Of a DNA stretch of 64,000 nucleotides, positions 2,864 to 58,209 are shown piece by piece. The notes beneath the pieces are model-generated. The model was not told where the DNA came from, ran no database searches, and worked only from the letters and a program-made list of their open reading frames with translations. This DNA comes from Candidatus Bathyarchaeota archaeon BA2. GTDB taxonomy: Archaea > Thermoproteota > Bathyarchaeia > Bathyarchaeales > Bathyarchaeaceae. Location: assembly GCA_001399795.1 (NCBI GenBank), contig LIHK01000056.1, positions 5,773-69,772 of the forward strand, read 5' to 3'. Within the stretch, counting starts at the first letter, position 1. Each line of letters opens with the position of its first letter. Both the position numbers and the translations under genes were made by a program.

Positions 2864-5023
2864 TCACGGAGCAATTCCCAGTGATCTTTTAACCAACTCA
2901 AGAATTCTTTTTGCTTTTTCTTCACCAATACCTTGAATATACCGCACATGTATTTTTATGAAATTGGTTTCTCCTCGGTCTTTGTAAAGAGTTTTCAACA
3001 TGTCAAGGACTGTACCACTGTATCGAAGTGGTGGTTTAGCGAGCACATTCTTGCAATATTCATAAAGATTTCTAGCCGTAGTACGTCCAATTCCCTTGAG
3101 TTTAACGAACGGTACCTCCTCACTCCTAACTCCCTTTCGTATTCTGTCTCTTAGGATCTTGAACTGAGGAGGAATAATGAAGTTCTTTGCTCTTGCTAAT
3201 AACTTACATGTGAGTAAGAGCTTATCAAGTTCTCCCGCAACCTGAGGTAGTTGACTCGCGTAAACTTTAAAGTCTCTTTCAATCTGGTACTCCTCCATAT
3301 TTTCAATCCAGCCGAAGAAGACCGCGTACGCTGAATATTCTGCGTGACCGCAATCTGTGACCCCTTGAGTTTCATAGAACTCTTCTATCTGCTGCGATGT
3401 TTCCCTTGGAATCTTAGTCAATATAGCGCCCTCAAAAAGACGAGACAACGTATAAATGAGATCAAAATCGAAAGTAACTCCTCCTTCGTCGTCAAGATAT
3501 TTATTTAGTTCGAGAAACGGAGTTAGTTCATAAGGTGCAAAGGTGCTAAACAAAAATCTAAGAGTTACTTGTCCAAGATCTGTGAGTTTGTAGCCGGGAG
3601 CGCCAAGATATGACATGAAACCTGCGTCACAAAGGTATTTGACATGTCTACCCAGTATTCCGAAGAGGTCAAAGGGCATAAATGCTCTGGTTACTTTACG
3701 CGACTGAAAATTATAGAATGTTTTTTCAAAGAATCCTAATATTTGCGCATCTGTACATCGACCTGAATAAATCAACTCCAAAATTGCTTTTCTGAAATAC
3801 TCATCGCGTGCTATGTGTGAGTGTGCTTTTTCTATTTTTCCATTCAAGTATTGAGGTATTTTGCTAGTCAGCTCTTCGATACGTTTAGCGACAACATATG
3901 CATATCCTTCAGTACCGAATTGTGGTCTTCCAGCTCGCCCTGCCATTTGAATGTACATATAAACAGGAACGCTCACTCTTGACCTAGTATTAGGATCATA
4001 AAATGTTACATCGCTTAACACAACGGTTCTTGCAGGAAAGTTAATCCCGTACGCTAGTCCTGTGGTGGCAAATAAGTAATCAATTTCTCCGTTAAGAAAA
4101 AGATTTTCAACTAAAGTTCGTAGTCTTGGATCCAATCCAGAATGATGAAAAGCTACTTTCTTGCAAAGGCAATTGCAAAGGTTCTCTTCTAAATCCGTGA
4201 ACTGTTGTCGTTCTAACTCTCTTTCAAAGGCTTTAGCTATATCTTTTTTATTCGCGCTTAATTTCTGTATGAGCTGGCACATCTCGAGAGCTCGACTTTT
4301 TGTGGATTCTCGGGTAGTACAAAAAATAATATACGGATGCTGGCCTTTTTCCAAGAGAGATTCACAAAGAGCTCTGTTTTGTTGCGTGGCGTTCACTTCT
4401 GACAAATCAATGACGCCATACTTGAGGGGAACTACCCTAAGTTCTTCGGGAACTTCTATGACTTTTGCATCAAGCCATTCGCCAATCTCATTTTTGTCTT
4501 CAAAAGTGGCGGATAAGCAAATTATTCTTACATTAAGTTCTTTTAAAATTGTGATAACCTTTTCTAAATTAAACCCTCTAAGAGGGTCGTAAAGCACATG
4601 AAATTCATCAATGACGACTAGTTTGAAACCTTCGACATGGTGCCTAGCGGTTAGCGCAGTTCTATAGAAAAGCTCGAAAGTCGTGATTACGATATTAGCT
4701 GCATCCCAATCACGCGGCATGGCGTCCATTCCAACAATTTTATAGTTTTGCTTTAGATACAAAAATTCTCTTTCTTTATCAGAGATAAGGGGTTTCATGG
4801 GGACTAAGTAAGCTATTCTTCCTCCAGCTTTCAATGTTTGTAACATAACAAGTTCTGCAACACAAGTTTTTCCGGAAGCAGTAGGGGCAACAACTACAAA
4901 ATTCCTGTTGCTGTCGAGAAGCCCTTCGTTAAATGCTTTTTGCTCCGTAACGTTCAGCTTTTCCCAACCCTTTAATGTGAGTAATTCTTTAACAATCTCT
5001 TCTTTTCCTACTGCCATTACCAA
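2864..5023 (-). CDS. Ski2/Hel308-family DEAD/DEAH-box helicase
   Basis: Walker A APTASGKT, DEFH box, SAT-like LSAT, and a helicase C motif QMAGRAGR. The 719-aa length and the C-terminal helix-hairpin-helix-like end (GIGRTTARNL, IQGIGEEKAKRI) also fit. Confidence 0.8.
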   Translation of the reverse strand: MVMAVGKEEIVKELLTLKGWEKLNVTEQKAFNEGLLDSNRNFVVVAPTASGKTCVAELVMLQTLKAGGRIAYLVPMKPLISDKEREFLYLKQNYKIVGMDAMPRDWDAANIVITTFELFYRTALTARHHVEGFKLVVIDEFHVLYDPLRGFNLEKVITILKELNVRIICLSATFEDKNEIGEWLDAKVIEVPEELRVVPLKYGVIDLSEVNATQQNRALCESLLEKGQHPYIIFCTTRESTKSRALEMCQLIQKLSANKKDIAKAFERELERQQFTDLEENLCNCLCKKVAFHHSGLDPRLRTLVENLFLNGEIDYLFATTGLAYGINFPARTVVLSDVTFYDPNTRSRVSVPVYMYIQMAGRAGRPQFGTEGYAYVVAKRIEELTSKIPQYLNGKIEKAHSHIARDEYFRKAILELIYSGRCTDAQILGFFEKTFYNFQSRKVTRAFMPFDLFGILGRHVKYLCDAGFMSYLGAPGYKLTDLGQVTLRFLFSTFAPYELTPFLELNKYLDDEGGVTFDFDLIYTLSRLFEGAILTKIPRETSQQIEEFYETQGVTDCGHAEYSAYAVFFGWIENMEEYQIERDFKVYASQLPQVAGELDKLLLTCKLLARAKNFIIPPQFKILRDRIRKGVRSEEVPFVKLKGIGRTTARNLYEYCKNVLAKPPLRYSGTVLDMLKTLYKDRGETNFIKIHVRYIQGIGEEKAKRILELVKRSLGIAP

Positions 5024-5128
5024 GCCCTAGACCAGCTCGTAGCAAGTGTAACGCGCTAGATTTTTAAATACTTTTCAATGTATAAAAATGGGTTTAATAT
5101 TTCTGACAATTATGAGATTGTTAGAGAC

Positions 5129-9214: not shown

Positions 9215-12094
9215 TTGTCAGATCTTCCCAAGAACGCCTTCGATATGCTCGTTAAACCGATTCGTAGACTGGTTGAGCAGAAAGGCTTTGAAGCACCAAC
9301 CGAGCCCCAGGAGAAAACCATACCAAAAATCCTTGAGGGAAAGAATGTTCTCCTTATATCGCCTACCGCCACTGGGAAAACTGAGGCGGCTGTTCTCCCG
9401 GTTCTCAGCATGCTCATTCAAACGCTTGAAAGACCGCGTGGAATCAAAATTCTCTATGTGACGCCTCTTAGGGCTTTGAACCGAGACTTACTTGAGCGTC
9501 TCGAATGGTGGTGCAACAACCTAGACGTTAAGCTGGCGGTTAGGCATGGCGACACCGACACTGAGGAGCGGACTAGACAGGCTCAAAGCCCTCCAGACAT
9601 GTTGATCACCACGCCGGAAACCTTGCAGGCCATTCTGCCCGGTAGGCTCATGCGTCAGCACCTTCAGCAGGTAAGATGGGTGATCGTCGACGAAGTTCAT
9701 GAAATGGCGGACAGCAAGCGGGGAAGCCAGTTGTCCTTGGCTCTTGAAAGGCTCAGATGGGTCACGGGCAGAGAATTTCAACTCATCGGCTTGTCGGCAA
9801 CTATTGGAAGTCCGGAGAGGGTTGCTCAGTTTCTCGTCGGTAACGGGCGTGAAGTCGAGATCGTGAAGGTGCCCGTCGCGCGGCTCATGAGGTTAAAGAT
9901 TCTTTTTCCGCAACCGGAATCAGGTGACTACGAGTTAGCTTCAACCTTGTTTACCCATCCTGAGGTCGCCGCCCGCCTTCGCATAATTCGCCGGTTCATT
10001 GAAGAGCACAAATCTGTTCTTCTTTTCACAAACACGCGAGCCATATCAGAGGTTTTGGCCAGCCGATTCAAAGTTTGGGACGTGGACTTCCCTGTTTCCA
10101 TCCATCACGGCTCCCTGGCTAAGCCTTCTAGAATCGCGGCTGAACGGGGACTGAAGAACGGCGATTTGAAGGGGCTTGTTGCCACATCTTCGTTGGAGTT
10201 GGGCATAGACGTTGGACGGATTGACATGGTGATTCAGTATATGAGTCCGAGGCAGGTTACACGTCTCATTCAACGTGTGGGTCGGAGTGGTCACAGAGTT
10301 GGACGCATCGCAGAGGGGCTCATCATCACTATGGATTCTGATGATACGCTGGAGGCCATGTCTATCGGTCGCATGGCTGGCGAAGAGGATTTGGAGCCTG
10401 TGGATGTACCATATAAGCCGTACGATGCCTTGGCTCATCAGATCATTGGCCTCTTGATGAAGAAGAAGCGTTGGTATTTCTACGAGATTTACGACCTCTT
10501 TAGGAAGGCCTATCCATACGCTGACCTTACAGTGGAAGACGTTCAGAAAGTTTTGGATTACATGCACCATCGGTTTCCTAGGTTGGCGTGGGTTTCCTTT
10601 GAGGATATGCTTGCCATTAAGCCGCGTCAAACCAAGGCTATGTACGAGTATTATTTCGAGAATCTTTCCATGATTCCCGACGAAAAGAAATTCTTGGTTG
10701 TAGAAGAAAGTAAAGATTCTGCTGTGGGTGTTCTAGACGAGGCTTTTGTTGCCGAGTACGGTAAGCCTGGCGTGAAATTCATTATTCGTGGTAGCCCTTG
10801 GAAAATTTTGAACGTTTATGGTGACCAAATTTACGTGAAGCAGGTTAACGATCCAACTGGGGCCATTCCGAGCTGGGTTGGAGAAGAGATTCCCGTTCCC
10901 TTCGATGTGTCTCAGGAGGTTGGTTGGATCAGAGGTTTTGTTGAGGAACAGGTAAAGAATGGAAGGGAGCCTTTTGAAGTTGCTAGTCAGTTGGCCGAGA
11001 AGTATCCTGCTGACAGAGATACGGTTATGCGGGCGATTCATGAGACGGTTGAGCAAGTCAGGAAAGGTTATCCTGTTCCTACGGGTAAGCGGATACTGAT
11101 CGAGGATTGGGAGGACTTCGTCATTATTCACGCCCATTTCGGGTCCCTCACGAATCGGGCTTTGGCTCAGTTAATTGGTCACGTTTTGTCTGAGCAGACC
11201 GGATACAGCGTTATGGTTCAACACGATCCGTATCGCATTTTCGTTTATACGATGAGTGCCGCCAATGCTGATCGTATTATGGGATTGTTTGATGAGATGA
11301 AGCGGATGGATGACTTGGACATTCGTGACATGCTTACCAAGGCGACCGTGAAGACCGGCATTTTCAAGAGGCGGATGGTTCACGTTGCCCGCAGGTTTGG
11401 AGCCCTAAAAAAGTGGGTTGACCTGAGCAGAATTAGTCTTCAGAAGTTGATGAAGAGTTTTGAGGATACAGCCATCTACGATGAGGCTTTGAAGGAGACT
11501 TTCACCAAGGACCTAGATTTGGAGCACATGACCTGCGTGCTGAACGATGTTAAGAAGGGCGAAATTGAAGTCACTAAACTTGAAACTGAAGGCGTTGCGA
11601 CTCCAGTTGCGCGTGTTGGAATAGAAAGGGTTAGCATGAAAACTGACCTCATTCCACCTGAGAGGATGAAGCTTATTCTGGTGGAGTCGACTAAGGCGCG
11701 CCTCCTCAACGAGGTTCGCACCTTTGTTTGCACCGATTGCTGGGAATATCTGGAAATGATTCGGATTAAAGATTTACCTGAGATGCCAGCTTGTCCTAGA
11801 TGTGGGTCCTCAAGCTTGGGCGTGCTTGGGATGGAGGAAGATGCTATTCGGTCTTTGGTTGACAAGAGGGGTGAGAAGCTAACCACAAGCGAGGAGAAAA
11901 TGAAGAAGGGAGCTTTAAAAACGGCTAGGTTGATGTCTGGGTACGGCAAGCCAGCTGCTGTGGCCCTTTCTGGAAGAAAGCTTAGGGTTTCTGACGTGGA
12001 GGAAATTCTTAGAGAGGAGAAGACGCTTTCAGACAGGTTTTTTGAGTTGGTGATAGAGGCTGAAAGAAACGCCCTAAAAAGAAGATTCTGGTAG
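9215..12094 (+). CDS. lhr: Lhr-type large ATP-dependent helicase
   Basis: 959 aa. Walker A SPTATGKT, DEVH box, SAT, a helicase C motif QRVGRSGH, and a long C-terminal Lhr-like extension with a CxxC...CPRC zinc ribbon. TTG start at 9215; ATG alternative at 9245. Confidence 0.9.
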   Translation: MSDLPKNAFDMLVKPIRRLVEQKGFEAPTEPQEKTIPKILEGKNVLLISPTATGKTEAAVLPVLSMLIQTLERPRGIKILYVTPLRALNRDLLERLEWWCNNLDVKLAVRHGDTDTEERTRQAQSPPDMLITTPETLQAILPGRLMRQHLQQVRWVIVDEVHEMADSKRGSQLSLALERLRWVTGREFQLIGLSATIGSPERVAQFLVGNGREVEIVKVPVARLMRLKILFPQPESGDYELASTLFTHPEVAARLRIIRRFIEEHKSVLLFTNTRAISEVLASRFKVWDVDFPVSIHHGSLAKPSRIAAERGLKNGDLKGLVATSSLELGIDVGRIDMVIQYMSPRQVTRLIQRVGRSGHRVGRIAEGLIITMDSDDTLEAMSIGRMAGEEDLEPVDVPYKPYDALAHQIIGLLMKKKRWYFYEIYDLFRKAYPYADLTVEDVQKVLDYMHHRFPRLAWVSFEDMLAIKPRQTKAMYEYYFENLSMIPDEKKFLVVEESKDSAVGVLDEAFVAEYGKPGVKFIIRGSPWKILNVYGDQIYVKQVNDPTGAIPSWVGEEIPVPFDVSQEVGWIRGFVEEQVKNGREPFEVASQLAEKYPADRDTVMRAIHETVEQVRKGYPVPTGKRILIEDWEDFVIIHAHFGSLTNRALAQLIGHVLSEQTGYSVMVQHDPYRIFVYTMSAANADRIMGLFDEMKRMDDLDIRDMLTKATVKTGIFKRRMVHVARRFGALKKWVDLSRISLQKLMKSFEDTAIYDEALKETFTKDLDLEHMTCVLNDVKKGEIEVTKLETEGVATPVARVGIERVSMKTDLIPPERMKLILVESTKARLLNEVRTFVCTDCWEYLEMIRIKDLPEMPACPRCGSSSLGVLGMEEDAIRSLVDKRGEKLTTSEEKMKKGALKTARLMSGYGKPAAVALSGRKLRVSDVEEILREEKTLSDRFFELVIEAERNALKRRFW
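12044..12093 (+). repeat. Direct repeat copy 1 (lhr 3' end)
   Basis: 48 of 50 nt identical to 12763-12812. Encodes ELVIEAERNALKRRFW. Confidence 0.95.
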
Positions 12095-12206
12095 GTGTCT
12101 ATTTCTAGAACCTAATTTTTGCCGAGTTAAAATTAGGCTTCAGGGAAAATTTAATGAACGTAAGTGTAAGCAATTGCGATTGATTGCGGAAGATGGAGTG
12201 GCTTAG

Positions 12207-12527
12207 ATGAAAACTTTCATGGAAGAAATCATGAGGGCTTATAGGAAGAAAGTGCTTTTTACGCGTCATGCGTTGAATCAGATGAACTTGTCTGAGAGAA
12301 TGATTTCGAGGCTGGAGGTTTATGAGGCATTGGAGAGTGATGAGATTGTGGAAGATTATCCAGATGATCCTCGGGGGCACAGTTGTTTGCTTATGGGCAA
12401 AACTCGTGATGGAAGGGTTATTCATGTGGTTTGTGCACCCAAGGAGGATTATTTGGCGATAATAACGATTTATTCGCCAACTTTATTAGAGTGGGAACCA
12501 GACTTTAAAACGCGTAGAAGAGAGTGA
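12207..12527 (+). CDS. DUF4258-family toxin-like protein
   Basis: 106 aa. The F/TRHALNQM...EDYPDDPRG...LL...VVCA pattern is typical of DUF4258. A 4-nt overlap with the downstream zinc-finger gene also fits a toxin-antitoxin pair. Confidence 0.7.
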   Translation: MKTFMEEIMRAYRKKVLFTRHALNQMNLSERMISRLEVYEALESDEIVEDYPDDPRGHSCLLMGKTRDGRVIHVVCAPKEDYLAIITIYSPTLLEWEPDFKTRRRE

Positions 12528-12760
12528 GGCTCATGGAATGTTATTATTGTAAGGGCGCTATGGTTAGGGGAAAAACAACTTATACGATGAATGGGCGGGG
12601 GTATCATCTTCTTATCGATGAAGTTCCGGCTTGGATATGTCAGCAGTGTGGCGAGGTTTATTTTGAAGGAGAGGAAGTCGACATAATCCAAGACTTGATT
12701 AAGACGATTGATTCAAAACTCGCCAAAGCTCAATTGGCTAAACCAAAACCTCCAACGTAG
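12524..12760 (+). CDS. YgiT/MqsA-type zinc-finger antitoxin-like protein
   Basis: CYYCKG...CQQCGEVYF zinc-finger pattern. It overlaps the upstream toxin-like gene. Confidence 0.7.
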   Translation: MRLMECYYCKGAMVRGKTTYTMNGRGYHLLIDEVPAWICQQCGEVYFEGEEVDIIQDLIKTIDSKLAKAQLAKPKPPT

Positions 12761-12762
12761 AT

Positions 12763-12812
12763 GAGCTGGTCATAGAGGCTGAAAGAAACGCCCTAAAAAG
12801 AAGATTCTGGTA
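12763..12812 (+). repeat. Direct repeat copy 2 (displaced lhr 3' end remnant)
   Basis: Same 16 codons as the lhr C-terminus plus a TAA stop. It starts 2 nt after the antitoxin stop codon. Confidence 0.95.
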
Positions 12813-13036
12813 AGTTTACGCTGAAAAGGCAACTTTAGGGCTCGGATTTTCCTCACATGTGCTTGTAGAACGATTTATGATCGGAAATGTGTTGGGAATG
12901 TTGAAAACATTGTTGAAAAATTATGGAGGGGCCCTAGATAGAGAAAGAGATAGTTATTTAGAATTCATAAAAGTATAAAAGGAAGAGAAAGTGACTTAGT
13001 AGTCCCCTACTGTTAGACCCTCTGGAGAAGAACAAT

Positions 13037-20493: not shown

Positions 20494-20580
20494 CGCTGAG
20501 GTTTTGTCAGGTTGACAAGATAACTCTTTCTAAGCCCCTCATCACCATTTTTAGTGCAATTGCGTTTTTGGAAAAAATAC

Positions 20581-20617
20581 TGTTTTCAACATTCTTCTGT
20601 TATTAGGATCCAAATAG
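20581..20617 (+). repeat. 37-bp perfect repeat, copy 1
   Basis: TGTTTTCAACATTCTTCTGTTATTAGGATCCAAATAG is identical at 41622-41658. Weaker similarity extends about 25 nt upstream. Confidence 0.9.
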
Positions 20618-27678: not shown

Positions 27679-28059
27679 TTAGCTTGGTCTCTTCAGGTAT
27701 TCAGACACGCTTTTGAGAAAGCGTTCAGCAGCCTCAACAATCCATTCTGCATCTTCTGAGCCAAGAACAGGCCTTAAGGCGTAGTCAGCTGTTTCCCTCA
27801 AACTTTTTGCATCTGAAAATATTATGCCAAGCTCTCTGGGCAGTTTCTTCTCCTTGACGAAATGTAATCCAAACTCTCGGAGGGTTCCTTCATGGGTTTT
27901 TGGAAACGAGTTTTCAGAGGCTAGAGCAGCTTTAGACGCATGGAATATGCAATAGTAGGCTCTAGAAATGGCGTCTTCATATTCCTCAAGGCCCAGTAAT
28001 TTCTTCGCCGCCCCCAGTTTTCTTTGAGCTTTCCTTAAGAGGTCATCAATTTCTGACAA
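27679..28059 (-). CDS. HEPN domain protein (toxin-like partner of the MNT protein)
   Basis: 126 aa. AISRAYYCIFHA and the Rx4-6H-like RETADY region. It overlaps the upstream nucleotidyltransferase gene by 14 nt. Confidence 0.75.
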   Translation of the reverse strand: MSEIDDLLRKAQRKLGAAKKLLGLEEYEDAISRAYYCIFHASKAALASENSFPKTHEGTLREFGLHFVKEKKLPRELGIIFSDAKSLRETADYALRPVLGSEDAEWIVEAAERFLKSVSEYLKRPS

Positions 28060-28543
28060 GACTCAAAACATCTCCATATAACTGAATGCCTTCTTCCTTG
28101 ATTTCCCTAGCAAAATTCAGCTCGTCCTTTATCCACTCAATAAATTCTTCTCGGTTCATGATGATTAGTGTTATGGGCGTGGCTGAAACCAGAGATATGG
28201 GATAGATTATTTTGTGTGATTTCCTTCTGACTCTAGAAGCATCTTCGTGTTCAATCAGAATGAGCAGGTCTATGTCACTTTCAAGTGTGGCATCGCCGCG
28301 AGCTACAGACCCGAACAGCACAACATCAGTGATGACGCTGGCTAGGTTAGATTTCAAAATCTCGGAAGCTATTTCAGCGATAACACGAATAAACCTTTGC
28401 AGGGATATGTAATGTTCGGCAACAAGCCTTCGAACCGCCTCTCTAATGGCTTCGCTTCTGCTTACATAGAAACCCTCTGAGACAAGTCTATCCAGTTCTC
28501 CGACAAGTTTATTGTCAAGTTTCGTTGGGATAGCTAGGTCCAT
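28046..28543 (-). CDS. Minimal nucleotidyltransferase (MNT) with an N-terminal ribbon-helix-helix
   Basis: RHH-like SRSEAIREAVRRLV. Nucleotidyltransferase motif LFGSVARGDATLESDIDLLIL. Confidence 0.75.
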   Translation of the reverse strand: MDLAIPTKLDNKLVGELDRLVSEGFYVSRSEAIREAVRRLVAEHYISLQRFIRVIAEIASEILKSNLASVITDVVLFGSVARGDATLESDIDLLILIEHEDASRVRRKSHKIIYPISLVSATPITLIIMNREEFIEWIKDELNFAREIKEEGIQLYGDVLSLVRN

Positions 28544-36422: not shown

Positions 36423-37083
36423 ATGGTTAGGAAAGAAGAGATTGGCAATACCGAAAGTAAAGGTAAATGACATCCAAATTCACTACGAAGTGCACGGCAA
36501 AGGCTTCCCATCATAATGATCATGGGGCTAAGCGCAAACATAGACTGGTGGGACCTCGCATGATTCAAGAACTTTCCGAGCATTTCAAGCTAATACTTTC
36601 GACAACAGGGGAGCCGGACGCACCGAAACATCCGATAAAAAATACACCATCAAATTGTTTGCCGATGATACAGTGGGTTTAATGGATGCCCTAGTAATCT
36701 TCAAGGCCCACGTACTTGGAATTTCAATGGGCGGAATGATAGCCCAAGAACTAGTGCTCAACTACCCCGAAAAAGTTGAAAAGCTGGTCCTCTGTTCAAC
36801 CATCTCAGGATGTATTGGGAATGATCATACCCGATAAAGCGTTGTCCCCAGAAGAAATAGCCAGAATGACGATTCCACTTATTTTCACCCAAGACTTCAT
36901 CAAAAAGTACCCTGCTATTACATGGCAAACAAGACATTCTAATACCTCCAGAAAACGGCTCCATTCTAGCTAAAGCCATACCAAACGCTAAACTCGTTTA
37001 CTTCGAGAATTCAGCCCACGGACTCATAGAAGAAAATGGACGAAGTGATTAACGTTCTACTAGACTTCCTAACAGAATCTTAA
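36423..37083 (+). pseudogene. Alpha/beta-fold hydrolase pseudogene (multiple frameshifts)
   Basis: Pieces lie in different frames: KVNDIQIHYEVHGKGFP, IMIMGLSANIDWW, PRMIQELSEHFKLIL, FDNRGAGRTE, LFADDTVGLMDAL...HVLGISMGGMIAQE (nucleophile elbow GxSxG), ...KLVYFENSAHGL. Confidence 0.75.
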
Positions 37084-37087
37084 CAAT

Positions 37088-38005
37088 TCAAAAGCTCTTG
37101 TGGGCTAAACCCACAATCTCCTTCACATTCCCAAAACCCTTCTTCTTAACATAAGCGTCAATTCCCCTAGCCACAGACTTGAAGACTCCAAGCCCCTTAA
37201 AAGCAATTGCTGTTCCAATCTGAACCGCTGAAGCCCCAGCCAACATAAACTCCGCAGCATCTCGCCAAGTAGTTATTCCCCCACAGCCGATAACCGGAAC
37301 ATCAACCTCACGGTAAACCTCATACACGCACCTTACGGCAATGGGCTTTATAGCAGGACCAGACAACCCGCCAATCCTGTTCGCCAAAAGAGGCCTAGCG
37401 GTTTCAATTTCGATGGCCATAGCCCTAACCGTGTTAATAGCTACTATGGCATCCGCACCCGCTTCAACAGCAGCCCTAGCTATTTCAGCAATGTTAGCAA
37501 CGTTTGGAGTCAACTTCACGAAAACCGGCTTGCCCACCTTCTTCTTAACTTCCCTCACAACTTCCGCCACCAAATCCAGATCGCTTCCAATCTCTGCTCC
37601 CATTTCTTCAACATGGGGACAAGACACGTTCAATTCTAAGGCGTCTGCTCCCGCCCCAGCCGCAACCTTAGCCACTTCAGCAAAGTCTCCAGATGAAAAA
37701 CCGTAGACGCTTACAATAATTGGAACCCCAGCCTCCTTTGCTTCTCTTATCTCCTCACCAAAATGATGAATGCCAGGGTTTGGAAGCCCGATGGCGTTGA
37801 GTAAGCCGCATTCAACCTGAACCACGGTTGGGTTGGGATAGCCTTCCCGCGGTTTTAGCCCCACCGACTTCGTAACAACGGCGCCAGCGCCAGCCTCAAC
37901 TACGCTTCTTAAGGATGACCCAGTCAACCCGAGAATCCCAGCGGCGAGCATCGTGGGATTGGCAAGCTTTAGTCCAGCTATTTCTGTAACGAGTCGCCCC
38001 GACAC
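37088..38005 (-). CDS. pyrD: Dihydroorotate dehydrogenase catalytic subunit (class 1B)
   Basis: 305 aa. NPTMLAAG, ELNVSCPH, TPNV, NTV, GGLSGP and GCGGI motifs. Confidence 0.9.
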   Translation of the reverse strand: MSGRLVTEIAGLKLANPTMLAAGILGLTGSSLRSVVEAGAGAVVTKSVGLKPREGYPNPTVVQVECGLLNAIGLPNPGIHHFGEEIREAKEAGVPIIVSVYGFSSGDFAEVAKVAAGAGADALELNVSCPHVEEMGAEIGSDLDLVAEVVREVKKKVGKPVFVKLTPNVANIAEIARAAVEAGADAIVAINTVRAMAIEIETARPLLANRIGGLSGPAIKPIAVRCVYEVYREVDVPVIGCGGITTWRDAAEFMLAGASAVQIGTAIAFKGLGVFKSVARGIDAYVKKKGFGNVKEIVGLAHKSF

Positions 38006-38088
38006 CTAGGGGACACCTCTTGTTGCAGTAAATGTTATCCACTAGCAAGATAAATGTTAAGAGGAAACACTGAGATGGAGGAAGCTGG

Positions 38089-39306
38089 GTGAAAGCAACT
38101 ATCGTAGAATGCGTGATGGGTGTTCTCAGCTTCGGAGAAGCCAACGAACTTCTCGACAAAGTTTTCTTCCCAAAGAATCCGCTGGAAATAGCGGAAAGGC
38201 TTGGAAAAATAGAAGCCGGAAAGGTTATTGAAGAAATAGCTACTTTGATTGAAAAACTGCAAGAAAAGGGTTACACAACCTTTGTTTTTGAAAGTTTGGA
38301 GATGGCTCGAAACGCCCGCGAAAAGCTAAACATTGAAGTAGATGTAGAGAGGCCCTCGGAGGCTGGTGAGCTGCTTCGTGGAAACCTTGAAAATTTTGCT
38401 GTTGACTTGGGGTTCGTAAAGCGGGCGGATCAGCTTCATGAATGGATTCACAATGTTTCTATGGAACTCGCTAAGGTAAGGGTGATGAGGGCTGTTGAAA
38501 AGCGAGATTTGTTGGTGGTTCAGGCTATTCAAACCATTGACGACTTGGACAAGACGCTGAATCTTTTCATGAGCAGGGTCCGCGAGTGGTATGGACTCCA
38601 CTTTCCAGAACTAGATCGTCTGATAGACAAACACGAAACATACGCGCGCCTTATCCTTAACTTTGGAAAAAGGGACAATTTTACTGTAGAAAACCTAGAG
38701 AAAGAGGGGTTACCGAAAGCTAAAACCGAACAGATAGCCGAAGCCGCCAAAGCTTCGATGGGAGCTGAACTCAGCGAAGAAGACATAAACCAAATGCAAG
38801 CCATGTGCAGAAACACGCTCGGGCTCTACGATGCGCGGCAGTCGCTGGAAAAGTATGTTGACACGATGATGAACGAGGTTGCGCCCAACACCCGTGCCTT
38901 GGTTGGTTCCCTTCTTGGAGCTAGACTCATAGCGCTTGCAGGTGGATTAAACAATCTAGCTAAGTTGCCAGCGAGCACACTTCAGGTTTTGGGTGCTGAA
39001 AAAGCCCTGTTTAGGTCGCTCAGGACAGGGGCTCGCCCCCCCAAGCATGGAATAATTTTTCAGCATTCCCTTATTCACGAAGCGAAACGGTGGCAGAGGG
39101 GGAAGGTTGCTCGGGCTTTGGCTGGAAAGTTGGCTATAGCCGCTCGAATCGACGCCTTCAGCGGCAAGTACGTGGGAGACAAGTTGACGGCTGGTCTCGA
39201 GAAAAGAATTGAGGAAGTCAAAGAAAAGTATGGGGAGCCTCCTCCTCCCAAGAAGCTTCCAGTCCAGAAGCGTCCTAGGAGAATGAAACGTGGCCGTAGA
39301 CGTTAA
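38089..39306 (+). CDS. nop5: C/D box RNP protein Nop5 (Nop56/58)
   Basis: NOSIC/Nop domain (REWYGLHFPEL...AEKALFR...PKHGIIFQH) and a K/R-rich tail. Directly upstream of fibrillarin and overlapping it. Confidence 0.9.
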   Translation: MKATIVECVMGVLSFGEANELLDKVFFPKNPLEIAERLGKIEAGKVIEEIATLIEKLQEKGYTTFVFESLEMARNAREKLNIEVDVERPSEAGELLRGNLENFAVDLGFVKRADQLHEWIHNVSMELAKVRVMRAVEKRDLLVVQAIQTIDDLDKTLNLFMSRVREWYGLHFPELDRLIDKHETYARLILNFGKRDNFTVENLEKEGLPKAKTEQIAEAAKASMGAELSEEDINQMQAMCRNTLGLYDARQSLEKYVDTMMNEVAPNTRALVGSLLGARLIALAGGLNNLAKLPASTLQVLGAEKALFRSLRTGARPPKHGIIFQHSLIHEAKRWQRGKVARALAGKLAIAARIDAFSGKYVGDKLTAGLEKRIEEVKEKYGEPPPPKKLPVQKRPRRMKRGRRR

Positions 39307-39988
39307 GCCGCACCCACGGTTTCCAGGAGTTTACTGGGCTTCTTTAGAGGATGGTTCCAGAAGACTAGCCACAGCAAACCTTATTCCAGGGAAGAGTGTT
39401 TACGGTGAGCGACTGGTCAGGTTTAGGGGTGAAGAATACAGGCTTTGGGACCCTTATAGGAGCAAGTTTGCTGCTTCCATTTTGAAGAGTCTGGAAGCTG
39501 TTCCTATCCAACCTAACCATAAAGTTTTGTACTTGGGAGCCGCTTCTGGAACAACGGCGAGTCACGTTTCTGACATTGTCGGGGAGAAGGGTCATGTCTA
39601 TTGCGTAGAATTTGCTGCTCGCGTCATCAGAGAGTTGGTTAACAACGTTTGTGCCTTTCGCTCTAACATGTCGCCTGTATTGGCGGATGCACGTCTGCCG
39701 GAGCGTTACTCGACGCTGGTGGGGAAGGTGGACGACGTTTACTGTGATATAGCTCAGCCTGAGCAGGCTAGGGTTTTGGCGGACAATGCTGATTTGTTTC
39801 TTGTGGATGGTGGTTGGGTTATGTTGGCGGTTAAGGCTCAGAGCATAGATGTTACGAGGGAGCCCTCTGAAATATATGAACAAGAGATAAACATTATGAA
39901 GGTCCGTGGGTTTCGTGTCAGCGAGGTTGTTCACCTGGAACCTTATGATAAGGCGCACGCCATGATTGTGGCAAAGAAAGAAACTTAA
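39290..39988 (+). CDS. flpA: Fibrillarin (rRNA/tRNA 2'-O-methyltransferase)
   Basis: YRLWDPYRSKFAA, VLYLGAASGTTASHVSDIV, and DIAQPEQA. Confidence 0.95.
   Translation: MAVDVKPHPRFPGVYWASLEDGSRRLATANLIPGKSVYGERLVRFRGEEYRLWDPYRSKFAASILKSLEAVPIQPNHKVLYLGAASGTTASHVSDIVGEKGHVYCVEFAARVIRELVNNVCAFRSNMSPVLADARLPERYSTLVGKVDDVYCDIAQPEQARVLADNADLFLVDGGWVMLAVKAQSIDVTREPSEIYEQEINIMKVRGFRVSEVVHLEPYDKAHAMIVAKKET
39806..39983 (+). repeat. Direct repeat copy 1 (fibrillarin 3' end, 178 bp)
   Basis: Identical to 40599-40777 apart from one extra G in copy 2. Checked base by base. Confidence 0.95.
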
Positions 39989-40033
39989 AAAGGAAGAAAC
40001 ATGCTTCTCTTATTTATCAAGTAAGGTGATCAA

Positions 40034-40240
40034 ATGAGCGTAACGGTCAGCAAAACTCAGTTGAAACAGGTGCTAGATAAATTGGACTCGGTGAGACTCG
40101 AACTTTTGAGGCTCAGAGCAACACTTCTTCCTCAAGAAGAGCCAAGCAAAGAGGATGCAAAAAAACTTGAAGAGGCCCGAAAAGAAATAGCAAAAGGCGT
40201 GAGCATAAACCTCGAGGACCTAATCAAAGAGTTAGGCTGA
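40034..40240 (+). CDS. Antitoxin-like small protein (partner of RelE)
   Basis: 68 aa, helical, located 8 nt upstream of the RelE-like gene. Confidence 0.55.
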   Translation: MSVTVSKTQLKQVLDKLDSVRLELLRLRATLLPQEEPSKEDAKKLEEARKEIAKGVSINLEDLIKELG

Positions 40241-40247
40241 CCCAACG

Positions 40248-40511
40248 TTGTTTCAGGTTATTCTTTCTCAGAAAGCCAGAAAATCTATCAAAAAACTCCC
40301 TAAATATTACAAGCGAAGAATCATAGAGTTACTTTTAATTTTTCGTGAGAATCCTGTTCCAGCTGAATACTACGATATAAAGAAGCTTAAGGGATATCTT
40401 GATGCATACAGAGCAAGAATAGGGGATGTCCGAGTTATCTACGAAATTCTCTGGGATGAGAAAAAAGTTAATGTACTGCTAATCGAGCCAAGAGAAAGAG
40501 CCTACCTCTAA
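40248..40511 (+). CDS. relE: RelE/ParE-family toxin
   Basis: KKLPKYYKRRI...YRARIGDVRVIYEILWDEKKVNVLLIEPRERAY, the typical RelE/StbE layout. Confidence 0.75.
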   Translation: MFQVILSQKARKSIKKLPKYYKRRIIELLLIFRENPVPAEYYDIKKLKGYLDAYRARIGDVRVIYEILWDEKKVNVLLIEPRERAYL

Positions 40512-40598
40512 AACTATTCAGTGCGTAACGTGATTGTAGAGCTTAGAAAATATAGGATAAGAAGACTCTAAACAGTAGCCTGTTTAATCAATTCTTTT

Positions 40599-40777
40599 AG
40601 ATGGTGGTTGGGTTATGTTGGCGGTTAAGGCTCAGAGCATAGATGTTACGAGGGAGCCCTCTGAAATATATGAACAAGAGATAAACATTATGAAGGTCCG
40701 TGGGTTTCGTGTCAGCGAGGTTGTTCACCTGGAACCTTATGATAAGGCGCACGCCATGATTGTGGCAAAGAAAGAAA
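40599..40777 (+). repeat. Direct repeat copy 2 (displaced fibrillarin 3' end, 179 bp)
   Basis: Same as 39806-39983 with GG changed to GGG at about 40619-40621. The end diverges (..KKENI* versus ..KKET*). Confidence 0.95.
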
Positions 40778-41011
40778 ACATCTAATGAAGTCGTAAAAAA
40801 CTACTAGAATTTGGAAGAAACAAACGTTACTTGAGGTAATAAGTTGTAAATTTTCCCCCATCTAAGCTCAATTGTTTTCTGTCCAGTTCTTATCCATTCA
40901 AAGGCTTTTTTATTAACCATGAACAGGGGCATTAATGCATCACCAAAGTTTATCTCTATGATGAAAATTTATAGATTGAAGAGTAAGCAACAAAAATAGA
41001 TGTGATGTTAG

Positions 41012-41250
41012 TTGTCTGGTCAGATTACACCTGAAGATTTAGCTAAGGCTGAAGACGTTGACTTTGAACAAGAAAAGGAACATTGGAACACATACAAACT
41101 AAAAGATGGGACTACTCTAATGGTGAAACTGGTTCTTGTTGGAGTAAAAAACTGAGAAAATGGAATCCCGATGGAAGTCCAGTTTACGTGATTAACTCTC
41201 AAAACGTAGTGCGAGTAACTAATGTGCCAAAGGAATTGAAAGAAAAATAG
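41012..41250 (+). pseudogene. Small ORF (about 79 aa) interrupted at an A_AAA_AAC heptamer
   Basis: ...KDGTTLMVKLVLVGVKN stops at TGA 41153. The -1 frame continues KKLRKWNPDGSPVYVINSQNVVRVTNVPKELKEK*. The heptamer at 41146-41152 is phased X_XXY_YYZ. Confidence 0.4.
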
Positions 41251-41448
41251 CCAGAGAAACGACATTCAAACCAGTGTAGTGATCATAGCTGGTGTAACTT
41301 CGATCTTCCTCATAAAGTGCCGATATTTGTTCATGGAATTTCATCTTAATGTGAGAAATGTGGAAAAAGTTATAGCAGAACCAAAAGAACTAATTAAAAT
41401 CTCAAAATCTTTAGCACCACTAGAAATGATACATCAGCTGTTCATCAG

Positions 41449-41509
41449 TGACTGCAAATGCGCTTGAATGTTGAACTATATAAAGAGAAACTAGGGGGTC
41501 TATCTACAG
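41449..41509 (-). repeat. Unit of the dispersed intergenic repeat family (reverse orientation)
   Basis: The reverse complement reads CTGTAGATAGACCCCCTAGTTTCTCTTTATATAGTTCAACATTCAAGCGCATTTGCAGTCAC. Confidence 0.75.
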
Positions 41510-41621
41510 CGCGCGCGGCGACAGGTCTTTTGTCTCTCGAAGGAAAAATTTGTTGTGAGACAAAGGTGAGGTACCCCTCCATCCATTTTCACAGCAGTTA
41601 CGGTTTTCAGAAAAATATTGT

Positions 41622-41658
41622 TGTTTTCAACATTCTTCTGTTATTAGGATCCAAATAG
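41622..41658 (+). repeat. 37-bp perfect repeat, copy 2
   Basis: Identical to 20581-20617. Confidence 0.9.
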
Positions 41659-41793
41659 GCAAGAAAAAGGGGAGCCCGCGGGGGACATCTCCACTAAAAG
41701 CTGAAACCTGTATTTTGGATTCATATTTTGGATTCATAAGTTAGTTAAAGGCAAAAGCCCATCACACATCCATAATCAGATGGAGAAACAAAA

Positions 41794-41976
41794 ATGGAAA
41801 AATCTCTATCCCCTCAAAAGCGTAAAAAACTTCAAAGGATGGTTATGGAAGCCTTCAAAGAAGAAATAAAAACCCTGCCCGCCGAACTCCGATACATCCT
41901 AACAGACGACTTAGTGACAGCTTTCCAAAACAGAATAACCATATTCCAGAGAATCCAAACAAAAACAAGCCTCTAA
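41794..41976 (+). CDS. Hypothetical small protein (60 aa)
   Basis: ORF only. Confidence 0.3.
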   Translation: MEKSLSPQKRKKLQRMVMEAFKEEIKTLPAELRYILTDDLVTAFQNRITIFQRIQTKTSL

Positions 41977-42061
41977 TCGGAATCGGAAGAAAAAACCTTA
42001 GTCTAAATCCATAAATGATATATACTCACTAGACAAAAATAAACTTAAAAGGGGCATACCT

Positions 42062-42358
42062 ATGCGAAGATCCAAACTTGAGATGTACATCGACATCCTC
42101 AAAGTTCTGGCCCACAGAGGCCCCCTTAAACTAACCCACATTATGTACAAAGCCAACGTAAACTGCAGCGTTCTCAAGCAATACTTAGATTTCCTCATAA
42201 AACAAAACCTAGTAGAAGAAAAAACCATAGGCAAAAAAAGAATAGTATACGGCATCACAGAAAGAGGCATAACAGTTCTCAAATACTTTAGAGAACTAAA
42301 AGTTATGCTCCCAGCTCTAGAAGAAGAAATCGCCAAAATCCCCCCAAGCCTATACTAG
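42062..42358 (+). CDS. Winged-helix DNA-binding protein
   Basis: SKLEMYIDILKVLAHRGPLKLTHIMYKANVNCSVLKQYLDFLIKQNLVEE...YGITERG pattern. Confidence 0.6.
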   Translation: MRRSKLEMYIDILKVLAHRGPLKLTHIMYKANVNCSVLKQYLDFLIKQNLVEEKTIGKKRIVYGITERGITVLKYFRELKVMLPALEEEIAKIPPSLY

Positions 42359-42513
42359 CCAAACCACCCACTTCCCATCCCCTTCCACTTCTGCAACCAA
42401 ACATGCAAGCAACAATTTTTTTCGAGAATATAGACTAGTATGTCGTAAGATTTAAGAAGCGCTGTCTCCCTACAATACTGTAGACCCGTCAAACACATCG
42501 AGGGTTCCCAACC

Positions 42514-42906
42514 ATGACAGTGTACAAGGGAAGGTTAGAAGGGAAATCCGCCAGAATATTGGAGAAAATAAAAGAAGGCCTTGACCGCCTCAACGAAAAA
42601 ATTGACGTGATGATCGAAATTCAGAGGCATAACCGAAAAGAAAGCCAAACCATACCAGACGTACTAGACGTAATGACCCTCCTTTCCCTGCCCGATCACC
42701 TGAGAAAAACAGCCGTGACCCTTTGTAGGCTCGGTCAAGCAACAGCCGATGAAGTCGCCGGACAAACAAAACGGGCAAGGGCTGTTGAAAGCGGCTACCT
42801 CAATCAGCTGGTAATAATGGGGTACTTAAAAAAGGAGAGGAGGGGACGCAAGGCCTACTTTTATGTTGAAAAGGAGGCTGAGGGTAACACATGGGAAAAA
42901 TCATAG
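42514..42906 (+). CDS. Winged-helix protein overlapping the ParA/MinD-like gene
   Basis: C-terminal wHTH-like LCRLGQATADEVAGQTKRARAVESGYLNQLVIMGYLKKERRGRKAYF. It overlaps the next gene by 16 nt. Confidence 0.5.
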   Translation: MTVYKGRLEGKSARILEKIKEGLDRLNEKIDVMIEIQRHNRKESQTIPDVLDVMTLLSLPDHLRKTAVTLCRLGQATADEVAGQTKRARAVESGYLNQLVIMGYLKKERRGRKAYFYVEKEAEGNTWEKS

Positions 42907-43678
42907 CCCTCCACTCATACAAAGGCGGAACAGGAAAAACGCTGCTATCAGTCAATCTAGCAGCAACATACGTTAGAAGAGGAAAAAACATTTGCCTCCT
43001 AGACCTAGATTTTCGCGCCCCAAGTCTCCATGCAGTTTTCAAAACCAACGACGCAGAATATTGGTTAAACGATTACCTAAACGGCGTCTGTGAAATTGAC
43101 AAGGTTTTGACTGATGTTGCTGAAAAGCATGGTAGAAGCGGGAGGTTTTTGGTTGGGCTGGCAAATCCAGCCACTGAAGCTATTAGAGAGATGTCTGCGA
43201 AGGATAGAAAGTGGGAAATGAGGGCTCTGGGTAGGCTCTTATCGCTTAAGACAGCTCTTCTTAACAATATGCATCTTGACAGCGTTATTTTTGACACAAG
43301 TCCTGGGCTTCAATACTCGTCTATAAATGCCATCGTTAGCGCCGACATTATCTTGGTGGTAACAAGCCTTGACATATCTGACATCCAGGAACCCGAAGGA
43401 TGACCCGTGAACTCTACACTCTTTTCGAGAAGAAAACTGGAATTTTGATGAACAAGGTGTCCACCGAGATCCTAGCATCCAAGAAAGAAAAAGAGAAATT
43501 CTATAAACACTTTAACAGCGTACATAAGCTTCCCATCTTAGAGGCTATTCCCTGCTTCTGCGACGTACTCCGGGCAGGAGGAACATACATATTCGCAGAG
43601 GAAAAACCAGAACACCCATTCACTAAGATCCTAGACAAATTAGCCACAAAAATCGAACACTTTTGCGTTTTGAGTTAA
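42891..43678 (+). CDS. MinD/ParA-family ATPase, frameshifted at about 43388
   Basis: Deviant Walker A KGGTGKT. ORF1 ends ...DISDIQEPEG*. The other frame continues GTRRMTRELYTLFEKKTGILMNKV. A single missing base in the GG run at 43388-43389 would join them into about 262 aa. Confidence 0.75.
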
Positions 43679-56747: not shown

Positions 56748-57218
56748 CTAGATTAACATGAAGGATTCGGCTTTCTTAAGTTTTCCTGTCATTGTATCTG
56801 GCATTAGGTTCAGCAGCTCTAGGGTTGTTAAACCAATTATTCCCCAGTCACTCAACTGCTTTGACCTTAACATTTCTTTGACTTCTTCTGGAATCCTTAG
56901 GACGAGTAAATGGGCATAAGGTAATTCTTCTCCTTCAACAATAAGTTTGTTGATGACCGCTAACTCACCATCCATTTTATGTCCTGAAGCGGTCATGAGT
57001 GTCAGCGTACGTTTAACATGGGTAACACCGACCTTATCAACCACTTCTTTATCGACTATAGTCACGGAGGCTCCAGTATCAACAAGTATAATGCCCTCTG
57101 AATATTCCTTTGATCCCTCCAACCTTAATCTAGCTTTAACGATGGTCAATGAAGACCCCGTGACTATAATTCCTAAGCACTCTAATAAGTTATCCCCTCC
57201 TATCGACCCCCTAATCAT
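56748..57218 (-). CDS. Retropepsin-like (clan AA) aspartic protease
   Basis: ILVDTGASVTIV active-site motif. 156 aa. Confidence 0.65.
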   Translation of the reverse strand: MIRGSIGGDNLLECLGIIVTGSSLTIVKARLRLEGSKEYSEGIILVDTGASVTIVDKEVVDKVGVTHVKRTLTLMTASGHKMDGELAVINKLIVEGEELPYAHLLVLRIPEEVKEMLRSKQLSDWGIIGLTTLELLNLMPDTMTGKLKKAESFMLI

Positions 57219-57620: not shown

Positions 57621-57848
57621 GTGGTGATTATTGTGAGCGATAAAAGAGCCAGGACGACGCTCATACTGGAGGAGACCGTGATTAAGAAGCTAAAACAAAA
57701 GTCACGAGGGAACATCTCAGAGCTAGCCAATAGAATACTTAAGGAAGCCCTCTTTGGTAAAGGCGAAAGCATGTTTGGCGAATTAAAGGGATTGGTGTCA
57801 ACGAAGGACGTCGTTGAGGAAGAAACTCATGAGGAGTTATATCGTTGA
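57621..57848 (+). CDS. vapB: VapB-like antitoxin
   Basis: 75 aa. An N-terminal beta-strand/helix pattern TTLILEETVIKKLK. It overlaps the PIN gene. Confidence 0.6.
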   Translation: MVIIVSDKRARTTLILEETVIKKLKQKSRGNISELANRILKEALFGKGESMFGELKGLVSTKDVVEEETHEELYR

Positions 57849-58209
57849 CACATACGCTTGGGTATCATACTTTGAGGGAAAGAAAGAATTCAAAGAAGCC
57901 ATAGAAGAAAACGAGCTTTACACCCCTTCAATAGTCCTAGCGGAGTTCAGCAGGATTCTAGTTAGAAAACGCATTCCGCAAGATAAGCGCTCTAAGACTC
58001 TTGGCTTCGTAAGGAAGCGCAGTCTCATCTTAAGCTTAGATGAGACCAACGCTGTTAAAGCTGGGGAAATAGCAGAGAAGGAGGGGCTACATCTAATCGA
58101 TGGCATCATATACTCCTACGTAGATGAAGACGTTTGGCTCCTCACAGGCGATAAGCACTTTATGAACAAACCTTTCGTTAACCTCATTGAAGGAAGCAAT
58201 GCCACATAG
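57829..58209 (+). CDS. vapC: PIN-domain toxin VapC
   Basis: YIVDTYAW (first acidic residue), ...EFSR..., and a C-terminal TGDKHF. Start taken at ATG 57829 (MRSYIVD). Confidence 0.75.
   Translation: MRSYIVDTYAWVSYFEGKKEFKEAIEENELYTPSIVLAEFSRILVRKRIPQDKRSKTLGFVRKRSLILSLDETNAVKAGEIAEKEGLHLIDGIIYSYVDEDVWLLTGDKHFMNKPFVNLIEGSNAT

Follow-up and report, generated by a model that had tools for sequence, protein, structure and literature searches.

The 64,000-nt stretch of the Candidatus Bathyarchaeota archaeon BA2 genome analyzed here (contig LIHK01000056.1; hereafter the window) carries a small toxin-antitoxin cassette directly behind the fibrillarin gene flpA, enclosed between two copies of the 3′ end of that gene. 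We consider it probable that this cassette is an old, non-autonomous mini-element that integrated by a Campbell-type crossover, and that it is one case of a design that recurs in the Bathyarchaeia. The topology and target logic of the element are those of known systems, while the lack of a recombinase, a cargo made up only of an addiction module and a repeat of 186 bp set it apart from them.

Results

A toxin-antitoxin pair between two copies of the flpA 3′ end

Gapless extension of both copies gives an exact direct repeat of 178 bp (39806-39983 and 40600-40777, offset 794), an identity that cannot have arisen by chance. The repeat extends to 186 bp (39798-39983 and 40592-40777) with two mismatches at its left edge, at 40597 and 40599, and the gap between the copies is 616 bp. 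An initial annotation of this DNA had described a 178-bp duplication of the fibrillarin 3′ end; the repeat is indeed exact, with the right copy starting at 40600 instead of 40599 and the offset being 794 instead of 793. The extra G that it placed at about 40620, and the frameshift that this would cause, disappear on alignment, which shows no indel and leaves the displaced right copy in the flpA frame (open reading frame (ORF) 40615-40785). As it had recognized, the left copy ends the full-length fibrillarin gene, the two C-terminal ends differ (KKET* on the left, KKENI* on the right), and the only two ORFs between the copies are an antitoxin-like gene and a RelE-family toxin gene that are co-directional with nop5-flpA. 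The insert has a GC content of 0.38, as compared with 0.49 for flpA.

Four relatives (L004, L005, L006 and L008) align to the window up to 39981-39985, where their homology to the intact flpA ends, and again from 40592-40601 to about 40822; the intervening 794 bp have no counterpart in them. Because these relatives align through the right copy into the flank, it is the right copy (KKENI* plus flank) that represents the native end of flpA. The last codon and stop of the intact gene are instead supplied by the insert, in a short piece (CTTAAAAAGGAAGAAACA) that closes with the 10-mer GGAAGAAACA. This 10-mer is found again at 40813-40822, where it closes the native flank and coincides exactly with the end of synteny in every relative. 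The short flank is present in all occupied relatives (L092, L175 and L182) and in none of the empty sites. That the last codon, stop and short flank of the left copy are insert-derived, and that the element would accordingly have brought its own flpA fragment, was missed by the initial annotation.

Chimeric left copies in other lineages

The origin of this fragment is most visible in L175-L177 and L182, in which flpA ends in KKET and is followed by the same left end of the insert as in BA2. Over the initial 30-65 nt of the repeat their left copy has clade-native sequence, after which it is of the L004/L005 type at 11 consecutive sites, and it closes with the same insert-supplied stop and short flank. 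The switch can also be followed at the protein level, two products (P0140 and P0149) being nearly identical over their first 170 residues and diverging thereafter. Since these left copies are chimeric, we infer that the flpA 3′ end delivered by the element stems from another lineage; a chimera of this kind is what a single reciprocal (Campbell-type) crossover with such a fragment would leave behind. In the window and in L092, donor-type sites are confined to the last ~25 nt of the repeat, as compared with the switch at 30-65 nt in L175 and L182, a comparison that gene conversion confounds. The mostly native-type left copy of these two genomes would fit conversion by the right copy at a later time. 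A switch point between host and element sequence was also sought within the L092 copies; the differences there are interspersed, so no crossover can be placed.

The cargo of this slot can change. In L175 the antitoxin start codon has turned from ATG to ATT and the cassette yields after ~85 nt to a VapBC-like pair, which is a replacement of cargo within the repeat-bounded slot. The region concerned (L175 1562-2367, and likewise in L176, L177 and L182) holds a dead, truncated RelB-like gene with the VapBC-like pair next to it and the same flpA junction.

An old insertion with homogenized copies

The near-identity of the two copies had been taken to indicate a recent event. L092 argues otherwise, as it is collinear with window positions 36908-40820 at 88% identity, through nop5, flpA, antitoxin, toxin and flpA fragment, has the junction sequences of BA2, and holds copies that are 92% alike with a 1-nt deletion between them. 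Each of the two genomes has substitutions that are common to both of its copies and missing from the other genome, and the edge differences of the right copy (T at 40597, A at 40599) are common to the window and L092. Because L092 shows the same insertion to be old, the perfect identity of the copies in BA2 reflects concerted evolution: the insertion is old rather than recent, and its copies have been homogenized by gene conversion. Overall, the initial observation is confirmed in part, and of its interpretation the architecture and the tension between excision and addiction stand, whereas the recent date falls.

A 703-bp MEGAHIT contig from the same kind of sample (L003) covers 40016-40718, including the right junction, and differs from the window only at 40597 and 40599, where it has the bases of the left copy; both edge variants therefore exist in the population. 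At these two repeat-difference bases the population is polymorphic, reading TTCTTGTG in L003 and TTCTTTTA in the window. The polymorphism fits gene-conversion tracts of differing length.

Occupied and empty sites among relatives

When the nop5-flpA loci of relatives are compared, as the initial annotation had proposed, both occupied and empty sites are found. Close flpA homologues fall into two groups, ending in KKEKTR* (234 aa) or in KKET*/KKES*/KKEN* (232 aa), and the KKEKTR* ending is that of the predicted product of the L092 right copy. L172, L173, L174 and L178-L181 are clean empty sites: they lack the 794 bp, are otherwise collinear with the window and carry a native KKEKTR*-type end. 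In a neighbor-joining tree of nop5 and flpA without the repeat (1.7 kb), the topology is (window,(L173,L092)), with bootstrap support of 86% for L173 with L092 and 5% for the window with L092; the empty L173 thus groups with the occupied L092 inside the clade that holds the window. Likewise, the cassette-type C-terminus is scattered across a tree of 41 flpA proteins. Either the site has been precisely emptied or it has been filled more than once at identical junctions, and in both cases the repeat-bounded unit acts as a discrete entity. The interleaving of clean empty sites with occupied lineages also fits the earlier suggestion that the unit is excisable through its repeats or held in place by addiction.

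None of the 80 related flpA loci from species-representative genomes (L004-L083) holds a second flpA fragment, so flpA is not widely used as an attachment site. These 80 loci, together with L172-L174 and L178-L181, represent empty target sites.

The toxin-antitoxin genes

The 87-aa toxin matches Pfam PF05016 (ParE_toxin) at 35.9 bits, above the cut-off of 23, with residues 4-86 on profile positions 1-89 of 89, and matches NCBIfam RelE_StbE at 16.4, under the cut-off of 27.9 for that family. The Pfam match places it in the RelE/ParE family, with toxic activity, by mRNA cleavage on the ribosome or by gyrase poisoning, as the prediction; its subtype may be either RelE-like or ParE-like. The 68-aa protein matches no Pfam or NCBIfam family at E <= 0.01, save for a sub-threshold match to DUF4763, and thus shows no match to the known antitoxin families (RelB, ParD, Phd/YefM and similar). 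An antitoxin role is suggested by its position and conservation. The layout is that of a type II module, with the antitoxin gene first, both genes co-directional and 7 nt between them, and the pair is conserved in the ~85 alignable related cassette loci. Relative to L092, dN/dS is 0.096 for the antitoxin gene and 0.071 for the toxin gene, and dS is 0.33-0.35 for the cassette genes and 0.50 for flpA; both cassette genes are under purifying selection.

Toxin homologues number 278 at E <= 1e-5, and the 120 that were listed are 73-100% identical. Among these, the ones that carry an organism name are nearly all from Bathyarchaeia, and many lie on contigs of 0.6-1.7 kb. Viral contigs hold only relatives of the toxin that are 33-48% identical.

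Related cassettes at other loci

Within the window, the only other long close-range repeat brackets a second cassette at the 3′ end of lhr (ORF 9215-12094), with copies of 54 nt and 3 mismatches at 12043-12096 and 12762-12815, 719 bp apart. The initial annotation had likened the flpA cassette to it, and the likeness holds, as here too the repeat encloses a toxin and an antitoxin. Elsewhere, self-comparison of metagenome loci shows direct repeats bracketing the pair in ~25 of 80. Exact flanking matches of 16 nt or more were found at 13 of the 66 loci with enough flank and at 1 of 114 shifted controls (Fisher p = 9e-6), and the repeat-flanked loci represent ~8 independent targets once orthologous loci are allowed for. 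The homologues of the toxin that were picked up by exact-protein context (L084-L091) were also considered and have no flanking repeats; the aspartic-protease genes that flank the pair in L085-L087 are distant paralogues only.

The repeats of different loci are mutually unrelated, each being whatever lies upstream. The targets include tRNA-Ile, of which the last 24 nt are repeated (L143, L144), tRNA-Phe (L120, L170) and a sugar nucleotidyltransferase gene, of which the 3′ 200-420 nt are repeated (L140, L141, L146, L149, L156, L168); further targets exist. The start of the repeat falls within the T-loop, 24 nt before the 3′ end, in two different tRNAs; this is a position classically used by tyrosine integrases. 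When cassettes from different targets are compared, their homology is limited to the upstream region and the two genes (window ~39995-40517). Their outer spacers are unrelated, and a search for a terminal motif shared by the cassettes at protein-gene targets found none. Between cassette and repeat, the right-hand gap measures 2-150 nt in 16 of 17 cassettes, and the left-hand gap 50-440 nt.

Cassettes can also follow one another. In L120 (1430-6242) tRNA-Phe is followed by three cassettes, carrying RelBE, a DUF4258-like pair, and PadR plus HepT/MNT, and each of them closes with a copy of the tRNA-Phe 3′ end, the last 24 nt or more. Similar arrays stand at another repeated segment in L153 and L160. 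Inside the third L120 cassette the ~45-nt motif described below precedes the 3′ fragment of a different tRNA (4960-5027).

Absence of a recombinase and class of the element

No repeat pair at the cassettes examined encloses an integrase. The 616 bp of the BA2 insert hold only two small genes, a Pfam scan detected no integrase domain in ten of the larger window ORFs, and none of the window's reading frames of 60 aa or more resembles the integrases of L142 or L148. The element is therefore not classed as an autonomous site-specific integrative element of the tyrosine-recombinase type. Among the larger neighboring ORFs at related loci, 2 of 122 match Phage_integrase: one lies in L142 (1715-2683, minus strand), ~310 nt from a repeat-bounded cassette, and the other near the cassette of L148.

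The direct repeats, with a gene 3′ end as target and the gene reconstituted, are those of a site-specific integrative element. The cassette ends showed no inverted repeats, and the repeat measures 24-420 nt between events, unlike the short, fixed-length duplication of a transposon or casposon. By inspection the element also lacks an integron attC site, since the repeat is the 3′ end of a host gene and the spacer has a 6-bp hairpin only. A search of viral contigs for an flpA 3′ fragment, as an autonomous parent with a phage-type attachment site (attP) in flpA would carry, found none.

Discussion

Proposed mechanism

The model that we propose starts from an element of ~0.8 kb that would consist of the upstream region, the antitoxin-position gene, the RelE/ParE toxin gene, a short spacer and its own flpA end, namely the last ~190 nt of the gene with a stop codon and a shortened flank. 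Entry would occur through one reciprocal crossover between this fragment and chromosomal flpA, catalyzed presumably by host homologous recombination or by a tyrosine integrase acting in trans. In this model flpA would stay whole, with its 5′ part coming from the host and at least its last codon, stop and short flank from the element, which in some lineages may have contributed most of the repeat. The cassette would then follow flpA, and the native flpA 3′ end with its flank would be pushed downstream as a dead fragment. Gene conversion between the copies would keep them alike, perfectly so in BA2, and the toxin-antitoxin pair plausibly penalizes cells that loop the cassette out, as might be expected from established addiction biology. 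As to origin, the cassettes may either have been born small or be the last survivors of larger elements.

Several points weigh against this model. The toxicity of one product of the pair and its neutralization by the other are predictions. The signature of a foreign fragment comes from other lineages and from the insert-linked short flank, the left copy of BA2 and L092 being mostly native-type, and site-specific and homologous recombination look alike here because gene conversion blurs the crossover points. No recombinase can be linked to the element, integrases being as rare among neighboring ORFs as stated above, and no excised circle was seen in the data, which are contigs. The host tree is drawn from one locus of 1.7 kb, and the empty-site contigs could in principle stem from assemblers that skipped the loop. 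Finally, the BA2 repeat of 186 bp is far longer than the 8-69 bp of the attachment (att) sites of archaeal elements.

Alternative explanations

One alternative is an effect of assembly, in which BA2 would have an empty flpA site and a free circle or tandem multimer of ~794 bp that the assembler threaded into the chromosome, or in which the second copy would be an assembler duplication. The 178-bp repeat probably exceeds the short reads used, the MEGAHIT contig L003 is broken within the repeat, and the two states are inseparable in short-read graphs, short reads alone being equally compatible with integration and with an empty site beside a circle. However, the same integrated order is found in two other assemblies, including the UBA re-assembly GCA_002509245.1 (L002), which is 100% identical over window positions 36958-43572 in an unbroken piece between N gaps. 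The unique right junction, moreover, bears the two single-nucleotide differences of the edge, and in L094 the order is toxin, right copy and chromosomal flank. The integrated topology is settled by L092, which has the integrated order with diverged repeats within a contig of 2.23 Mb. The initial annotation had itself named an assembly duplication as the finding that would overturn it; with independent assemblies and an orthologue speaking against it, we regard this explanation as highly improbable.

Two further alternatives accept the integrated structure and differ on how it arose. The duplication could have been made at insertion, a staggered break, microhomology-mediated repair or replication template switching having copied 186 nt of the recipient, in the manner of a very long target-site duplication, with selection keeping only those insertions that preserved the gene. 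The identity of the copies in BA2, the variation in repeat length (24-420 nt between events), the lack of a recombinase, the presence of each lineage's own substitutions on both copies and the shared junction strings (TTCTT at the left edge and AGAAACAT between flank and cassette) would all agree with such an event. The chimeric left copies of L175-L177 and L182 argue against a staggered cut or template switch on recipient sequence, as they contain a foreign, L004-like tract; in every occupied lineage the short flank and stop go with the insert, the edge differences at 40597 and 40599 are common to the window and L092, and two different tRNAs have the repeat start at the same distance, 24 nt, from their 3′ end. 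Duplication at insertion consequently appears quite unlikely to us. Somewhat less remote, though still unlikely, is that the cassette is a decayed remnant: a provirus or plasmid of normal, larger size and with an integrase would have integrated at the flpA 3′ end, shrunk by internal deletions to its addiction-protected pair and become immobile. Its targets, from the T-loop to the 3′ end of tRNAs and the 3′-distal parts of protein genes, are indeed those of tyrosine-recombinase elements, integrases stand near the L142 and L148 cassettes, and ~70-80% of related cassettes are without detectable repeats, as continuing decay predicts. Decay does not readily account for ~8 independent targets at which the repeat-bounded segment holds toxin-antitoxin genes only and the gaps are tight, nor for arrays made solely of such cassettes, nor for patchy presence and absence among close lineages with precise empty sites; integrase fragments were not seen. 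Campbell-type integration of a small element with its own flpA end is therefore the reading that we retain.

Relationship to known systems

Archaeal integrated elements are known to target the 3′ ends of tRNA genes and the 3′-distal parts of protein genes, to supply new stop codons and to form tandem arrays; in a survey of these elements the att repeats were 8-69 bp and the smallest element, of 2.6 kb, carried an integrase (PMC6563490). The BA2 cassette resembles these tyrosine-recombinase elements (cryptic integrated elements and proviruses; Krupovic et al. 2019, PMC6563490; She et al. 2002 as cited there) in its 3′-end targeting, flanking direct repeats, replacement of last codons, new stop, arrays and empty sites in relatives. 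It differs from them in having no integrase and in a cargo that comprises a toxin-antitoxin pair only (0.6 kb).

A comparable rescue of the target gene is provided by phage 21 and e14 of E. coli, which carry an alternative copy of the last ~165 bp of icd, so that icd is functional after a Campbell-type crossover and the displaced native 3′ fragment remains; both are bacterial, span many kilobases and carry an integrase gene. The nearest functional analogue of the BA2 element, being likewise integrase-less and att-bounded, is the group of cis-mobilizable elements (CIMEs) of the ICESt1/ICESt3 family, which sit at the 3′ end of fda in Streptococcus thermophilus, are without recombination genes, accumulate beside related elements and are thought to rely on an integrase in trans. 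CIMEs differ in being bacterial, in having 27-bp repeats, in deriving from conjugative elements and in not being limited to toxin-antitoxin genes, and trans-mobilization of the BA2 element is a proposal. Gene cassettes of integrons are alike in holding 1-2 genes, in forming arrays and in having a recombination site after each cassette, and toxin-antitoxin cassettes are frequent among them and stabilize chromosomal integrons by protecting the array from loss. In contrast, the site at BA2 is the 3′ end of the host target gene and not an attC hairpin, and there is no IntI-type integrase or attI. The topology is identical to that of the pop-in products of archaeal gene-targeting plasmids, in which the insert is flanked by a duplicated homology segment and can be resolved by pop-out; the BA2 element, however, is natural, has persisted across speciation and carries a cargo that would penalize pop-out. 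Our literature search found no description of repeat-bounded, toxin-antitoxin-only cassettes.

A possible class of cassettes and its implications

A broader and more tentative idea, in which we place distinctly less confidence than in the model for the flpA cassette, is that the Bathyarchaeia hold a whole class of integrase-less, toxin-antitoxin-only cassettes that behave in an integron-like manner, with the captured 3′ end of a gene or tRNA as the recombination site. A cassette between two copies would loop out as a small circle and could re-enter the same gene elsewhere, by homologous recombination or with a borrowed integrase, and arrays would grow by repeated entry. Cargo would be swapped within the slot, as with the VapBC pair that replaces RelBE in L175, and retention would be enforced by the toxin-antitoxin cargo itself. 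The flpA and lhr cassettes of BA2 would then be two members of the class.

If this is correct, a toxin-antitoxin pair plus ~200 nt of a borrowed host gene would suffice for a persistent, re-insertable archaeal element, which would offer toxin-antitoxin genes a route to spread and to accumulate beside essential genes in uncultured archaea. It would also explain why such cassettes break metagenome assemblies, many of their close homologues sitting on contigs of only 0.6-1.7 kb. For annotation, the displaced flpA and lhr fragments are to be read as insertion footprints and not as pseudogenes of paralogues. The locus further provides a natural system in which gene conversion, pop-out and addiction on 186-bp repeats can be measured over evolutionary time.

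Other features of the locus and the window

The features of the locus are collected in Table 1. Synteny with all relatives breaks at ~40822, and the flank of flpA therefore looks like an insertion hot spot; the variable segment that follows is probably older DNA inserted at the same hot spot. Its contents include a short ORF (40804-40932, minus strand) and a frameshifted ORF (41012-41250).

Table 1. Positions of the features of the flpA locus, and of the lhr cassette, in the window.
Feature	Position	Strand	Basis or remark
nop5, upstream partner of flpA	38089-39306	+	Pfam Nop 259.6 bits, Nop5_56-rel_N_Arc 66.6 bits; overlaps the flpA start
flpA, intact fibrillarin, 232 aa; hybrid gene with insert-derived last codon and stop	39290-39988	+	Pfam Fibrillarin 321 bits, profile 1-225 of 227
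Left repeat copy, attL-like	39798-39983	+	exact match to the right copy over 39806-39983
Insert-supplied flpA end: last codon ACT, stop TAA and shortened flank	39984-40001	+	
Antitoxin upstream region: TATA-like TTATTTAT and GGTGAT ribosome-binding motif	40002-40033	+	putative promoter
68-aa gene in the antitoxin position	40034-40240	+	no family match; always paired with the toxin
87-aa RelE/ParE-family toxin gene, TTG start	40248-40511	+	Pfam PF05016
80-nt spacer, right end of the insert; small hairpin AAACAG-TAGC-CTGTTT at 40570-40585	40512-40591	+	
Right repeat copy, attR-like: displaced native flpA 3′ end, in frame, without the first ~170 codons	40592-40777	+	
Native flpA terminal codons NI*, stop 40783-40785, and native downstream flank	40778-40822	+	
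Variable segment, GC 0.35, broken small ORFs	40823-41600	.	absent from L004
lhr cassette, same design: DUF4258 toxin (12207-12527) and YgiT/MqsA zinc-finger antitoxin (12524-12760)	12043-12815	+	

A conserved motif of ~45 nt (AAAAAGA..GGGnTTTGCrGGGGAt(a/t)TCTCCA) stands directly 5′ of displaced tRNA 3′ fragments at cassette ends. It occurs in the window at 41661-41702, ~880 nt downstream of the flpA right copy, and in L120 (1833, 2444, 4010, 4960 and 6110), L128 (3647 and 4264), L143 (3178), L144 (2487), L150 (1342 and 2096), L154 (261), L084 (3545), L075 (1270) and L030 (3677); in L128 the flanking repeat is the motif itself. The motif may represent one arm of an attachment site, or else serve as promoter or leader for a tRNA 3′-half. 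As an attachment-site arm of the flpA cassette it was rejected, since it is not located at the ends of that cassette. The window contains no tRNA genes.

A different pair was seen in L093 (2105-3021), where a RelE-like pair on the minus strand is enclosed by a 134-nt repeat, 92% identical, that spans the 5′ part of its upstream small ORF, which represents a variant geometry. By eye, the window holds two other toxin-antitoxin-like pairs, a HEPN plus nucleotidyltransferase pair (27679-28543, minus strand) and a VapBC-like pair (57621-58209, plus strand), and neither has significant flanking repeats. A small retropepsin-like gene (56748-57218, minus strand) adjoins the VapBC-like pair, just as aspartic-protease genes flank RelBE in L085-L087. 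At gathering thresholds no Rfam family matches anything in the window, including an element of ~65 nt (TTTTTGGAAAAAATA..TTGTTTTCAACATTCTTCTGTTATTAGGATCCAAATAG) with a small hairpin that occurs at 20535-20617 and at 41601-41658 and is kept downstream of flpA in L004 (5837-5892).

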